DNA from: Candidatus Krumholzibacteriia bacterium
GTDB lineage: Bacteria; Krumholzibacteriota; Krumholzibacteriia; LZORAL124-64-63
Length of the DNA: 54,644 nucleotides
NCBI GenBank assembly: GCA_030592845.1
Contig: JAUVII010000005.1
Span: 1 to 54,644, forward strand
Direction: 5' to 3'
A model generated the notes under the pieces. That model did no database searches. It saw only the letters and a list, made by a program, of their open reading frames with translations, and was not told where the DNA came from. A program made the translations under genes and the position numbers. The first letter of the stretch is position 1; each line of letters begins with the position of its first letter. Positions 7,659 to 26,495 of the stretch are shown one piece after another.

Positions 7659-7818
7659 GCCTCTGCTTCTTTCATCTGGGTTGGAAAATCAGATCTGAAA
7701 CTATCCATACGATAGAGGAACCGGGGGGTTCCCGCATATGTGTTCGCATGGATATATATTATTCCTGCACGTGTAAATTCGCCAGCGGGTTATCTGAGGA
7801 CCATCTCTCCAAATCAAG

Positions 7819-7843
7819 CCAGACACAATTCCAAAGGCACAAC
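7819..7843 (+). repeat. Solo copy of the MITE terminal repeat
   Basis: ccagacacaattccaaaggcacaac vs reverse complement of 14312-14336 (ccagacacaatttcagaggcacaac): 23/25. Confidence 0.7.
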
Positions 7844-7892
7844 TGAATGTTTTAAGCGGTAAATGTCCCGGCGATGCTTTAGATTCGACCCC

Positions 7893-14310: not shown

Positions 14311-14469
14311 GGTTGTGCCTCTGAAATTGTGTCTGGCGGAAACAACACCCCAGACATCAAAATGAGGGCCCCCCGGGGGGTCCTCTTTTTATTATTTGAT
14401 CATCTTTGCTGGATAAAACAGCCTTTCAGTGGGCCGCGCGGACCGGGACACAATTTCAGAGGCACAACC
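14311..14469. mobile_element. 159-bp MITE-like element with perfect 23-bp terminal inverted repeats
   Basis: ggttgtgcctctgaaattgtgtc (14311-14333) and gacacaatttcagaggcacaacc (14447-14469); no coding capacity. Confidence 0.7.
14364..14390 (+). terminator. Intrinsic terminator inside the MITE
   Basis: gagggcccccc/ggggggtcctc followed by a T run. Confidence 0.65.
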
Positions 14470-21418: not shown

Positions 21419-22723
21419 ATGTCTGATTTCAATTCCAAAGCCCCGACCGGATTCGACCGGTTCGGGCTCAACAAAACCCTGATTCGCGGCGTCGCGGCCA
21501 TCGGTTTCGATTCTCCGCGTCCCATTCAGATCGAAACCATTCCCGCGGGTCTCGCCGGCCACGACGTGCTGGGCCTGGCCCAGACCGGGACCGGCAAGAC
21601 GGCTGCTTTTGCGCTGCCGCTTTTGGACCGGCTTCTGAGAGACGGCAAGCAGGGCCCTCGCGCCCTGATCCTTGCTCCGACCCGGGAACTGGCCAACCAG
21701 ATCGCCAGCGAAATCCGCGCCCTCGCCAAGTTCACCCGTCTGGAGATGGTCACCATTTACGGCGGCGTCTCGGCTTACAACCAGGTGCGGACGCTGCGCC
21801 AGAAAAGGCCAGAAATCATCGTGGGTTGCCCGGGCCGTGTGCTCGACCTGCTCGAGCAGGGCGTGCTCCGTCTCGACCAGATCGAAACGCTGGTGCTCGA
21901 TGAAGCCGACCACATGTTTGACATGGGCTTCTTGCCGGACATCCGCAAGATTCTGGCTCCGCTGCCAGCGAACCGGCAGAACCTTCTGTTTTCGGCCACC
22001 ATGCCGCGGGAAGTCCGCCGGCTGGCCGACGACCTTTTGCGAAATCCCCACGTGGTCGAGCTGGCCAACGCCGCGCCGGCCGCGACCATCGATCACGCGC
22101 TGATCATGGTTGCCGAGCAGCGCAAACGCGACCTGCTGGAACACTTTCTCAAGCTGGAGAGCTGCGATTCGGCCATCGTGTTCACGCGCACGAAACATCG
22201 TGCCCGGCGTTTGGCCGATCAGCTTTGCAAGGCGGGACATCGCGCCGTGGGGATTCAGGGAAACCTGTCCCAGGGTGCGCGTGACCGGGCCATGCGCGGC
22301 TTCCGTTCGCGCCAGTACGACATTCTGGTGGCGACGGACATCGTTGCCCGGGGCATCGACGTGAGCGGGGTTTCCCACGTGATCAACTTCGACGTGCCGA
22401 ACACGCCGGAGGCCTACACCCACCGTATCGGGCGCACAGGTCGCGCGGAGTTGGAGGGTACTGCCTGCACATTTGTCACCGGCAGTGACTACGGTTGGCT
22501 GCGGGCCACCGAGCGCATGATCGGCACGCCGATTGATCGCCAGCAGGTTGAAGGATTTTCAGCCGAGGCTGAGATGAGGTCCGAACCACGCCGCCGTCCC
22601 CAGCGGGGACCCCGTCATGGGGGGCAGGGAGGCCGACAAGGTGGCGGACAGGGAGGCGGAAAGCCGTCGGGCAACTGGAACCGGTCCGGGGGAGGGCGGC
22701 CCAGGCGGAGGCGCTCGGGTTAG
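21419..22723 (+). CDS. rhlE: ATP-dependent DEAD-box RNA helicase
   Basis: AQTGTGKT, PTRELA, DEAD, SAT, ARGID, HRIGRTGRA; RG-rich tail; start ATG 21419 after gagg. Confidence 0.9.
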   Translation: MSDFNSKAPTGFDRFGLNKTLIRGVAAIGFDSPRPIQIETIPAGLAGHDVLGLAQTGTGKTAAFALPLLDRLLRDGKQGPRALILAPTRELANQIASEIRALAKFTRLEMVTIYGGVSAYNQVRTLRQKRPEIIVGCPGRVLDLLEQGVLRLDQIETLVLDEADHMFDMGFLPDIRKILAPLPANRQNLLFSATMPREVRRLADDLLRNPHVVELANAAPAATIDHALIMVAEQRKRDLLEHFLKLESCDSAIVFTRTKHRARRLADQLCKAGHRAVGIQGNLSQGARDRAMRGFRSRQYDILVATDIVARGIDVSGVSHVINFDVPNTPEAYTHRIGRTGRAELEGTACTFVTGSDYGWLRATERMIGTPIDRQQVEGFSAEAEMRSEPRRRPQRGPRHGGQGGRQGGGQGGGKPSGNWNRSGGGRPRRRRSG

Positions 22724-22748
22724 CGCCTTGGTATCTTCTTCATCAAAT

Positions 22749-23057
22749 TTACTGTTTGGGGTCGCGAACCCTGAAAAGGAGAAGGTTCCGAACAAGGCCG
22801 CCGATAAATAAAACCACCGGGAAAACCGTCAGCGAATATAGCCCGGATATGACGGGCCACCAGGCTCGGTCGGGACCCGCAGACATGTCCTGGTAAACTT
22901 TGAGCGTCAACAGACCACACAGCAGAAGGCCAAATATCAGAACTGACAAGTTGAAATAAATAATTCGCCGTTGTTTGTCCCGCTTTGGTGAGAAGCGGAA
23001 AAAGGCCCATAGCATCAGCACTGATATCGGTACCAGAACCAGTAGTGCGAGAATCAT
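22749..23057 (-). CDS. Small 3-TM membrane protein (cassette-like)
   Basis: MILALLVLVPI... with three hydrophobic segments; starts just after an attC-like site. Confidence 0.75.
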   Translation of the reverse strand: MILALLVLVPISVLMLWAFFRFSPKRDKQRRIIYFNLSVLIFGLLLCGLLTLKVYQDMSAGPDRAWWPVISGLYSLTVFPVVLFIGGLVRNLLLFRVRDPKQ

Positions 23058-23071
23058 CCCTTTCCAGCTCC

Positions 23072-23169
23072 CTCTGTCGTTGGGTTCATCTGCAAGGGCG
23101 GTTGGCGCGGACTTGGCGCAAGCCAGGTGCGTGCCAAGCGGCTTTGTCTGATTCAAGCTCCTGTTCGCG
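23072..23169 (-). repeat. Degenerate attC-like site 1 (98 bp)
   Basis: Starts CGCGAAC 3 nt after the trmO stop; internal dyad; 53/63 identical to the site at 23661; R' core mutated (GACAGAG). Confidence 0.7.
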
Positions 23170-23172
23170 AGC

Positions 23173-23646
23173 TTAAATGAAACGACCATCAGATCGTCTA
23201 TCTGGCGCCTTCTTTTTCGCTTGATCAAGCCAGCCAGTGCGGATTTCTTCTTGAGGATCGAATTCCGGCACATACGGCTTGATGTCGAGTAGTGGTGTGC
23301 CATCCAGTATGTCTACGCCATCGATGTGAAGAACCCTGCCCTCGATCCTCTCGAGTCGTACGACCGAAAGGCCGATAGGATTGGGCCGCTTGGGTGCACG
23401 GGTGGCAAAGACACCTCGCATCGTATTATCCATGAACGGAACCACTCTCAACTTGAATCCGAGACTGCGGTGGAACAGATACAACAGGATTATGTGCGAG
23501 AAACCAACAAGGTCCTGCAATCCGTCCGCGTAGTCTGCGAGTACTTCGACCGATCCCTTGATGCCCGAAGCACCCGTTGGTTGGATCGGCATACCTTCCA
23601 TGTTGGTGAAAGGGCTGTGAATCGTACCGATCGGTGTGAACTTCAT
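23173..23646 (-). CDS. trmO: tRNA (N6-threonylcarbamoyladenosine37-N6)-methyltransferase
   Basis: 'PIGTIHSPF...PIQP', 'GVFATRAPKRPNPIGLS', 'DILDGTPLLDIKPY'. Confidence 0.93.
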   Translation of the reverse strand: MKFTPIGTIHSPFTNMEGMPIQPTGASGIKGSVEVLADYADGLQDLVGFSHIILLYLFHRSLGFKLRVVPFMDNTMRGVFATRAPKRPNPIGLSVVRLERIEGRVLHIDGVDILDGTPLLDIKPYVPEFDPQEEIRTGWLDQAKKKAPDRRSDGRFI

Positions 23647-23660
23647 ACTGTCCCCAGTCT

Positions 23661-23758
23661 CGTGAACGTTGGCTTCATCTGCAAAGTCGGTTGGCGCGGA
23701 CCTGGTGTCAGCCAGGTGTGTGACAGGCGCAATTATCAGGTTCAACTATTTGATAGAT
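23661..23758 (-). repeat. Degenerate attC-like site 2 (98 bp)
   Basis: Minus strand ATCTATC-aaatagTTGAACCTGA...TGCAGATGAAgccaac-GTTCACG, with a central cctgg/ccagg dyad. Confidence 0.72.
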
Positions 23759-23778
23759 TTCACCTCACACAGTGAATA

Positions 23779-24969
23779 CTACATTAAATGCCGAAAATAA
23801 TGCTTCATGTTGGCATCGTATTTCATGGCAAATTTATACATCCACTGCCAACGCATCAATCTTCTGCCCAGCAATGAAGGATGATTGGTCATTGCTTCTT
23901 CGAAATTCTCCCCATTAAAAATGTCTGCATACAACGTGCAACCCTCAAATTCTCGAATTGGCTTCAAGAATATGTACCCATCACAAATTGTCGCAAGAGT
24001 GAAATCAGGATAGCCCAAGCAATACCCAGACTCTCCACCCGGCAAATCACCAAAAGGCGTCTCGTGCGTATCGAAGCCCACAGGTGTATTCCCTAGCGAT
24101 TCCATAACTCGATCAATGGCGCCACCAACCGGATATGTGAATTTTGTTGATGCTAAGCTTTCCCAAGGCGAGTGCAACAGAAGAGTAAATGATTGTTCGC
24201 CGACTTTATCATGCAACAGATTTCCCAGGCGCTGCGGATTCTTTCCGAGCAGCTTCTTGTTTTTGCTGTCATATACAGGTTGGTGAAATTTAGTAAATGA
24301 GTGATTTCGCCCGCAATAAATCAGGGCTTTTTCATTGGGCGTCACGAATTCCTTTATGGCCACCGCCGCCATGAAGGGATCCGGCTCACCCCGGTACCAT
24401 ACAGACTGCCACAACTCAGGAGACATGTTGTCCTGGAGAACTGTCAAATTTGGGCGATATCCGAGACCAACAATTCGAAACTTTGGATCATCTGGATCCA
24501 AGGAGGAATTCAATTCCCAGGCAGCTCGATAAAGGTCCATATATTCAACGTAGCACCAGTACATTTTATAGCGGAACACCAGGCTACGAACCGCCTCTTC
24601 ATCATATTCTTGTGCTGTCACAATTGAATCAGCCTCTGACTGCAATTCGTAAGATCCAAACTCAATCCCAAGATTGTGGATTCCTGCTTTATACAGTCGT
24701 GGAATTAAGCCCTGCACAAAAATTACATCGTGTTTAACGCGGTGATATTCTCCCAGAATTACTATGTTGTGGTCTTCAAATTTTTCCAGGAGATAGTCCT
24801 CCGGCGACTCTCCTTCGGAAGCAATATAATGACTGAGAGCCGACTGGAGATTTTCGGACAATGAAGGAATAGGCTCCTTCATAACCCAGCTGTAGACTAG
24901 AGGTGCCATTGAAAAGAACAGAACCAGCACTCCCCAGGCCCACTTTTTTGTGCGTTTATCCCAAACCAC
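23779..24969 (-). CDS. EreA/ChaN-like (erythromycin esterase superfamily) membrane-anchored protein; lower GC
   Basis: 'IVILGEYH', 'LGIEF', 'IYCGRNH', 'CDGYIFL'; N-terminal TM. Confidence 0.65.
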   Translation of the reverse strand: MVWDKRTKKWAWGVLVLFFSMAPLVYSWVMKEPIPSLSENLQSALSHYIASEGESPEDYLLEKFEDHNIVILGEYHRVKHDVIFVQGLIPRLYKAGIHNLGIEFGSYELQSEADSIVTAQEYDEEAVRSLVFRYKMYWCYVEYMDLYRAAWELNSSLDPDDPKFRIVGLGYRPNLTVLQDNMSPELWQSVWYRGEPDPFMAAVAIKEFVTPNEKALIYCGRNHSFTKFHQPVYDSKNKKLLGKNPQRLGNLLHDKVGEQSFTLLLHSPWESLASTKFTYPVGGAIDRVMESLGNTPVGFDTHETPFGDLPGGESGYCLGYPDFTLATICDGYIFLKPIREFEGCTLYADIFNGENFEEAMTNHPSLLGRRLMRWQWMYKFAMKYDANMKHYFRHLM

Positions 24970-25002
24970 TAATCCCCTGCCCTTTTTCGAAGCGCCACGT
25001 AA

Positions 25003-25075
25003 AGCTAACGTGAATTACCCATACCCACCTATCGGATTATACGGCAAAAGTATGGGCATAAACAAAACGTCTTTG
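25003..25075 (-). repeat. attC-like site 3 (~73 bp)
   Basis: Ends cacGTTAGCT on minus; arms cccatac/gtatggg; R'' degenerate. Confidence 0.55.
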
Positions 25076-25144
25076 ATATCCATTCTTTTACAGGGATATC
25101 CAACCCGAAAAACCCGGACAAATTCTTCCTCGTCATCAGGACAT

Positions 25145-25235
25145 TTCTAACGTGAAGATTGGGTTGTGCGATGGTTCCAGGTGCGCTGGGATAAAAAATA
25201 TCATTGCGAAAATCGCCCCCAGGGGCACGTTTGAA
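25145..25235 (-). repeat. attC-like site 4 (~91 bp)
   Basis: Minus strand TTCAAACgtg...cacGTTAGAA; outer arms 10/11 complementary. Confidence 0.6.
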
Positions 25236-25400
25236 AAGACAATCTATTGATAATAAGTAAGTTAAAAATTGGAGCTTCAAACTGGAGCCTCTGTTATGTC
25301 GTTGATCCCTACGGTAGAATTGCCGGTGCGGCATGGAATCTGCTATCCCGAAACGAGCCCAAACAGCAGATTGAGCCAATTCCAAGGGATAAAACGAACC

Positions 25401-26495
25401 ATGTCTCGAATCCTCAAATTGTTATGCCTGTCCTGCTGCCTGCTGGCGGCTTCCTGCGGCCCTAAAGAAGCCGAAGTGGGCTGGGAATCGGTGGAATTGG
25501 GTACTGACGCCGAGTTTCGTGACGTCTTTTTCCTCGATTCCCAAAACGGCTGGATTGTGGGCAAAGGTGGTGTGGGGATCACCGGGGGCATCATCGGTCG
25601 CACCCGCGACGGGGGTGGGACCTGGACCTACCGCAGCGGCCTGATCGGGAAACGTCCCCGTACCAGATCGGTCGATTTGAACGCCGTTGTATTCGTCGAT
25701 ACGCTGCGGGGCTGCATCGCCGCGGGGGCGGGGACCATGATCACCACCACCGATGGCGGCGAGACCTGGGACAGGATTCCCCCGACGGGCCCGGTTTACG
25801 CGCAAAACAAGGACATCGATTTTGTGGATGATCGTAACGGATGGGTTATCGGCCGGCAGGGAGTACTCCGCACCGACGATGGCGGCGACAGCTGGAGGCG
25901 CGTCGACGAGGAGGAAAAAATGACAGGTGACGCTCTTGATTTCCTGGATCTTGAGCACGGTTGGGTGGTTGGGAAATTCGGTGCCGCCCACCGCACTGAA
26001 GACGGCGGAGTGACCTGGGAAAAAGTGGAGGCATGGGGAGATCTGGAAGGTCTCAGCGGAGACGAAATGCCCAAATTCACCTCGGTCCACTTCAGCGATG
26101 AAAACCACGGCTGGATTGCGGGCTACATTCGTGAATTCCCCGGTTTTGAACAGCACGATTGGGGGGTCATCATTCACACGTCGGACGGTGGCCGGACCTG
26201 GGAACATCAGCTGGACGGTGTCGAATCTCTTTTGAAGTCCATCAGGTTCGAAAACAACCGGCGCGGCTGGGCGGTCGGCTACAACGTCAACGACGGGACC
26301 GCACAAATTTTGGCGACCGAAAACGGCGGCGGGTCCTGGGAGATCCAGACAACAATCCATGGGGAAGAACTGCTGGCTTTGTTTGAACGAGACGGACAGG
26401 TATGGGCCGTGGGCGACAGGGTCAGGGAAAAGCCCCAGAGAATGTTCAGGCTAATCCCCGCCCTCGGTGTCGGGAAGTCCGGCGAGGTCCAGTGA
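25401..26495 (+). CDS. YCF48-related (BNR-repeat beta-propeller) lipoprotein
   Basis: Lipobox AASC; repeated 'F.D...GW.VG..G.I..T.DGG.TW'. Confidence 0.9.
   Translation: MSRILKLLCLSCCLLAASCGPKEAEVGWESVELGTDAEFRDVFFLDSQNGWIVGKGGVGITGGIIGRTRDGGGTWTYRSGLIGKRPRTRSVDLNAVVFVDTLRGCIAAGAGTMITTTDGGETWDRIPPTGPVYAQNKDIDFVDDRNGWVIGRQGVLRTDDGGDSWRRVDEEEKMTGDALDFLDLEHGWVVGKFGAAHRTEDGGVTWEKVEAWGDLEGLSGDEMPKFTSVHFSDENHGWIAGYIREFPGFEQHDWGVIIHTSDGGRTWEHQLDGVESLLKSIRFENNRRGWAVGYNVNDGTAQILATENGGGSWEIQTTIHGEELLALFERDGQVWAVGDRVREKPQRMFRLIPALGVGKSGEVQ

Follow-up and report, generated by a model that had tools for sequence, protein, structure and literature searches.

A two-attC satellite cassette array beside a repeat remnant in a Krumholzibacteriia genome

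Between rhlE and a YCF48-like gene, the window (the whole 54,644-nt stretch analysed here, which is contig C80 of genome G000, 3.7 Mb and 82% complete) carries a small satellite cassette array, a two-attC CALIN. This array was probably built in trans by an integron integrase (IntI) that used a secondary GTT site next to the remnant of a repeat. We predict the array to be immobile, one crossover triplet having been lost from each attC. The block holds three minus-strand genes: one for a ChaN-family (PF04187-like) protein of 396 aa (23779..24969), trmO of the tRNA m6t6A37 methyltransferase family (157 aa, 23173..23646; cassette 2), and a gene for a predicted membrane protein of 102 aa, here called gene 3, with no attC after it (22749..23057). 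Their GC3 values of 0.47, 0.58 and 0.58, against 0.77 in rhlE and 0.70 in the YCF48-like gene, bear out the first-pass annotation's description of three co-oriented, low-GC minus-strand genes.

That annotation also placed the array behind rhlE. The DEAD-box helicase gene rhlE (plus strand, 21419..22723) does adjoin the block, but at the array tail and with an intact C-terminus that is native by comparison with 5 relatives, and the array head faces the gene for a YCF48/BNR-repeat protein, which is divergent from it (plus strand, 25401..26495). The array junctions are spanned by single contigs in sequencing runs X1 and X3, which are possibly the source samples and hence not independent. The rhlE neighbourhood differs in 5 relatives, and upstream of the YCF48 orthologues both relatives compared (G004 and G007) have other neighbours; because no empty-site allele was seen in these comparisons, we can only infer the insertion point and the order of insertion. 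An inverted top-strand insertion at the rhlE stop, with CTAAC at 22723-22719 as the leftover R'', was rejected because rhlE ends natively in 5 relatives, one of them sharing GTTAG, and the word falls within a local hairpin. Positions 22600-25500 gave no Rfam match and a sigma-70 promoter scan of the minus strand gave no site above threshold; a TATAAT is present by eye in site C, described below.

attC sites and cassettes

A covariance model (CM) trained on 27 sites of relatives, none of them from G000, and covering one attC family, identifies two minus-strand sites of 98 bp: A (CGCGAAC...GACAGAG, 23072..23169, 71.9 bits, E-value 3e-20) and B (ATCTATC...GTTCACG, 23661..23758, 55 bits, E-value 8e-15). 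Both scores are far beyond chance, and the rest of the window yields nothing better than E 0.2, save the reverse strand of A. A heuristic attC scanner recovered family sites as well, but gave false positives and was excluded from all counts. Sites A and B are identical at 68/98 positions overall and at 53/63 in the best window; this last figure, the boxes, and the lengths of 98, 98, 73 and 91 bp first given for four candidate sites were all reproduced. The attC family shows compensatory changes in 18 of 31 pairs, a covariation score reached by 0 of 500 shuffles. Folding favours the bottom strand both for A (-24.7 versus -11.2 kcal/mol for the top strand; z -3.9) and for B (-15.2 versus -9.0 kcal/mol; z -1.8), the minimum-energy fold of B being without an L box. 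Lying 589 bp apart on one strand, the two sites make this a CALIN as commonly delimited (at least 2 attC less than 4 kb apart), here by a custom CM.

attC A begins 3 nt past the trmO stop and attC B 20 nt past that of the ChaN-like gene. Each attC belongs to the gene that precedes it (B to the ChaN-like gene, A to trmO, none to gene 3), which corrects the earlier assignment of sites to the following gene. The trmO cassette starts with GTTCACGA and its attC with TCGCGAAC, so that R'' and cassette start are complementary at 7/8 positions, and the attC predicted for its circular form has a canonical fold of -28.9 kcal/mol; for the ChaN-like cassette the corresponding match is 5/7, or 6/7 with the intact allele. 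In A, R'' is intact, (T)CGCGAAC, and R' reads GAC in place of GTT; in B, a single substitution at 23753 has turned the AAC of R'' into ATC, and with its R', GTTCACG, the trmO cassette begins. Neither site thus combines an intact AAC in R'' with GTT in R', and since A is without GTT and B without AAC, the R box is mispaired in each folded bottom strand. Judged by sequence and predicted fold, A and B are genuine but decayed attC sites, and the first-pass reading of a CALIN-type array with damaged R boxes stands on these two, the triplets being broken in both.

The first cassette (minus strand, 23752..25009) runs from G/TTAGCT through the ChaN-family gene to the R'' of attC B. In run X5, an assembly from another study, one contig aligns to 23718-25011 at about 96% identity (54 differences) and continues past that match with 39 nt of the bottom strand of a family attC; therefore the ChaN-like cassette also follows a different attC, and the boundary is the G/TT at 25009. 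By this comparison the ChaN-like unit is a mobile cassette that moved in the past and is bounded by G/TT at 25009. The plus-strand letter at 23753 is T, giving an intact AAC, in X5, X6 and one X3 contig, and the window's letter recurs in X1 and the main X3 contig. The protein itself has no direct Pfam match and no PDB match; PF04187 (ChaN) is found in 108 of its 120 homologues and the atlas clusters agree. At metagenome locus L087 a truncated ChaN-like homologue (66% identity) has half an attC of this family nearby.

trmO, which the annotation had named together with an EreA/ChaN-like gene as cargo, scores 136 bits against TIGR00104 (cut-off 93) and is the only copy found in G000; the ChaN assignment holds through the homologues. 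Among 29 trmO loci scanned in the family, one (G139) has attC on both sides and 2 others gave one hit, and several close homologues retain the same leader and tail with no detectable attC. At loci L204, L207, L209 and L210 the cassette leader and an R''-like tail are kept across the family, the attC being present in G139 and largely lost in G156, G159 and G166. As sequences, these homologues form an apparent domestication series.

For gene 3 the CM finds no attC downstream. Its 28 homologues lie in many cases on short contigs, and none was found in the 207 class genomes, plasmids and viral contigs searched. The status of gene 3 as a cassette is uncertain; it could be resident here, or a cassette of older date.

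Integrase, main arrays and satellites

G000 encodes one intI (318 aa, contig C214; TIGR02249, 456 bits; catalytic motifs present), which ends about 380 bp before the contig end. The window was rightly described at first as free of intI, there being neither the gene nor a remnant on the 54.6-kb contig; the label of fossil integron has to be given up, because with an intact intI on C214 the window array is a satellite and not the fossil of a lost system. The search for further copies that the annotation proposed places the 98-bp attC family on 10 contigs of G000, mostly behind low-GC3, cassette-like genes, a HigBA pair among them, and not in the REP-like, non-cassette contexts that had been named as the contrary outcome. 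The best of these copies have perfect GCCTAAC and GTTAGGC cores and the canonical bottom-strand hairpin with two extrahelical bases, and at the C158 site the bottom strand folds at -36.6 kcal/mol versus -25.0 for the top. A HigBA-type toxin-antitoxin cassette with a perfect attC stands isolated among host genes at L004:6029-6752 (G000:C158).

In three relatives (G001, G016 and G012) sites of the same attC family stand in tandem right behind an intI of the same orientation, and in G001 R'' complements the preceding core 7/7 in 5 of 5 cassettes. Gene pairs of toxin-antitoxin type, short genes judged from their translations, lie directly downstream of intI in G004, G109, G110 and G008 (L297, L287, L292 and L295). 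Both crossover triplets are intact in 57/60 intI-linked main-array sites versus 17/43 satellite sites (5 of 11 full-length sites in G000 and 12 of 32 in relatives); the main-array figure is biased upward, since those sites are top-scoring hits and their neighbours and the CM was trained on intact sites, and the counts leave out partial sites, locus-edge sites and relatives' arrays that run off contig ends. In the well-assembled genomes G109 and G110 satellites lie more than 100 kb from the main array, so dispersal is not only an assembly artefact. In G005, murA is followed by intI; in G003, a decayed attC with cassette-like genes comes straight after murA (L198/L084), and this locus is possibly an integron that lost its intI.

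Under the trans-insertion that we favour, an integrase encoded elsewhere would have inserted cassettes at a secondary GTT site near 25009, beside the remnant of a repeat that we call F2. Successive cassettes would have stacked at the head with the newest nearest to it, in the order gene 3 (if it is a cassette), trmO and the ChaN-like unit. The change from AAC to ATC in B and the GAC at the start of unit 3 would then unpair the R box in the bottom-strand folds, so that excision by attC x attC recombination should be much reduced and the genes should drift toward domestication. The GTT at the head fits the GWT crossover of attG sites, but the GAC that forms the R' of site A is off that consensus, a point against the secondary-site model.

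The array head and the F2 repeat

Two further sites had been listed as attC-like and of a second type: C (73 bp, CAAAGAC...GTTAGCT, minus strand, 25003..25075), where the first cassette starts, and D (91 bp, minus strand, 25145..25235). The claim of four sites of two types survives for A and B; C is the array head and D is mostly F2 repeat. C and D do share an ending, as had been stated; the shared TTCAC/GTTAG is a 10-mer that occurs three times in G000, the third (TTCACGTTAG, on C343) being a gene end. The head region between the two GTTAG cores (minus strand, 25010..25144), which includes site C, is not a family attC. Neither C nor D is matched by the one-family attC model, and their dyads are no better than those of shuffled sequences (bottom-strand z -0.04 for C and -1.29 for D), the top strand of C folding better than its bottom strand; the folding check first suggested came out in favour of A and B and not of C and D. 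The upstream GTTAGAA core at the end of D (minus strand, 25145..25151), 10 nt outside the terminal-repeat fragment of F2, possibly served as an earlier insertion point.

The F2 remnant (plus strand, 25162..25240) comprises the terminal-repeat fragment GGTTGTGC, a GATA-N5-TATC dyad and a poly-C/poly-G hairpin, and retains only 8 nt of one end. There are 54 F2 loci in G000 by nhmmer, with BLAST matches on many other contigs, and F2 is often found inside 150-400-bp elements with the terminal repeats GGTTGTGCCTCTGAAATTGTGT. Two further members of this terminal-repeat family lie in the window, one with both ends at 14312-14468 and another at about 7740-7845. The same terminal repeats bound an IS-like element of about 1.2 kb with a transposase-like gene (G000:C143:5810-7037; C49, about 1145-2375; L146:1801-3031), present in two copies in G000. 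Its protein of 350-370 aa has a Cys-rich N-terminus, an HTH and an acidic motif and no Pfam transposase match; the element may resemble IS1/IS1595. By eye, no target-site duplication is obvious at the flanks of F2-family elements. If a MITE is defined by inverted repeats at its ends that recur on an autonomous element of the same genome, the F2 family is one. MITEs reportedly flank and move a whole class 1 integron in work by Gillings et al. from 2009; the present case is alike in that MITE-like repeats are physically tied to integron parts, and differs in showing a single repeat remnant at the head, with no paired ends around the block.

Apart from the window array, which was excluded from this count, seven arrays of G000 have a head that can be seen. 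In three of them (C332, C165 and C265) F2 immediately precedes the first cassette, and at the heads of the remaining four (C158, C89, C187 and C125) it is not found; no head is visible in C344 and C238. As a base rate, F2 is present in 39 of 1031 G000 intergenic regions (p 0.002), and it lies beside 5 of 154 low-GC3 genes with no attC (p 0.003 versus array heads), figures that rest on crude gene calls and small n. Congeneric arrays have F2 at the head in at least 3 of 10 cases by profile hits, two weaker cases being uncounted, which gives at least 6 F2 heads among 17 other satellite arrays versus a base rate of about 4%. Along the array strand, F2-headed arrays have the order hairpin, dyad or GATAT-like word, then G/TT, and four of them (C332, C265, G001:C163 and G004:C375) have a GTTAG behind the repeat that is complementary to the first R'' at 8/8 positions.

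These heads raise an alternative that we consider unlikely, namely that F2, spread by an IS transposase, is a preferred landing pad (a pseudo-attI or promoter donor) at which satellite arrays are seeded, and not at random GWT sites. In the same doubtful scheme, a transposable repeat akin to the intI-attI spacer would scatter pseudo-attI landing pads through the chromosome, a single integrase would build many satellite arrays there, and R-box mutations would fix useful cassettes such as trmO as ordinary genes, the repeat thus guiding the passage from integron cassette to core gene. Besides the enrichment at heads and the transposase-like gene with F2-type terminal repeats, this reading is favoured by the true intI-attI spacer of G001, which contains an F2 terminal repeat, a degenerate hairpin and a GATA-N5-TATC dyad (L059:10520-10620, G001:C87), and by an orphan attI-like site heading a cassette array in G007 (L196:3790-3830, G007:C73) that is identical to the G000 attI at 19/27 positions in register; no intI was found in G007, which is 89% complete. 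It is opposed by the facts that only 5 of the 54 F2 loci in G000 border an array, that attC was found within 1.8 kb at 0 of 72 terminal-repeat loci in other genomes (5 of the 72 having the F2 core), that satellites of genus g2 have no F2, and that most heads are unlike attI, the motif built from intI-linked attI sites matching neither C nor D; repeats and cassettes may also merely gather in the same tolerant AT-rich gaps. The landing-pad reading refines secondary-site insertion in trans and does not exclude it.

Site C also bears on an improbable alternative, in which the block was formerly the head of a full integron, with attI and the first cassettes, and either lost its intI or was moved by rearrangement, C being the original attI. 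In this lineage intI precedes attI in the same orientation, a position that the F2 remnant occupies in the window. Of the last 12 nt of site C, 9 agree with the G001 attI; with 1881 contexts as background p is about 0.002, without correction for the 11 heads, and over 27 nt the agreement is not significant (p 0.09). A head segment matches the G001 intI-attI spacer at 19/23 positions, a weak match (p about 0.016) that is not colinear. Against this stand also the missed attI motif, the contig being without an intI remnant and site C without an adjoining intI, and the ten separate loci, which are unlikely all to be former integrons. For the trans-insertion that we prefer, the array-building integrase need not be the resident C214 enzyme and may be another, because site C is nearer to the end of the G001 attI than to that of G000's own. 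By our judgement site C is attI-like with a probability somewhat short of even, a plain secondary site and a decayed second-type attC being each less probable than that and equal to one another.

Less probable again is a four-site array that counts both C and D as decayed attC sites of a second type: at C a TTTATGCCCATAC / GTATGGGTAA dyad stands before GTTAG at an attC-like spacing, and a long dyad around an F2 hairpin heads the C165 array, but the CM and folding results for C and D speak against it, the R'' of C is not complementary to the GTTAGAA of D, C has no homologue in 207 class genomes save one 29-nt match, and D belongs to the 54-locus repeat family. The C165 dyad (L006:4027-4125) is 99 bp long and near-perfect, with GCCTAAC and GTTAGCA ends and the F2 hairpin inside, and may be an attC-repeat hybrid.

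Known systems and implications

Insertion at secondary sites is among the origins of CALINs given by Cury et al. 2016 (PMC4889954), who place half of CALINs on the same replicon as an intI. The window array resembles the CALINs described there in its two same-strand attC 0.6 kb apart with no intI nearby, and in its small unknown cassettes with IntI encoded elsewhere in the genome (mechanism ii); it differs from that description in the occurrence of ten loci in a single genome, the largely broken triplets and heads enriched for a lineage-specific repeat. Loot et al. (10.1101/2022.09.11.507474) show insertion at GWT secondary sites and suggest domestication by attC loss. With the SALIN/attG systems of that account our array shares cassettes that lie outside the integron platform at GWT sites; it departs from them in the successive cassettes stacked at one head, in a possible target bias towards repeats, and in decay by point mutation of the R box besides attC loss. 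In Treponema-type chromosomal integrons intI is transcribed toward attI (PMC3607928), and in the complete integrons of the relatives intI likewise precedes the array and shares its orientation; the lineage and attC family are others, and the window holds a satellite only.

In the literature we found nothing that pairs trmO with an integron, matches for Krumholzibacteri and integron that, judged from their listings, concern other topics only, and, among titles and abstract openings, no title on repeat-headed CALINs. Possible targeting by the repeat is the only part of our account that goes beyond known biology, and we rate it as a tentative proposal with the balance of probability against it.

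For the questions of how CALINs arise and whether the cassettes in them are fixed, this lineage offers a natural series. A cassette that is mobile in one population is found mutated in another, the main arrays are intact and the satellites decayed, and trmO ranges from attC-flanked to attC-less. If the repeat does guide the landing of cassettes, CALIN formation would be targeted and not random.
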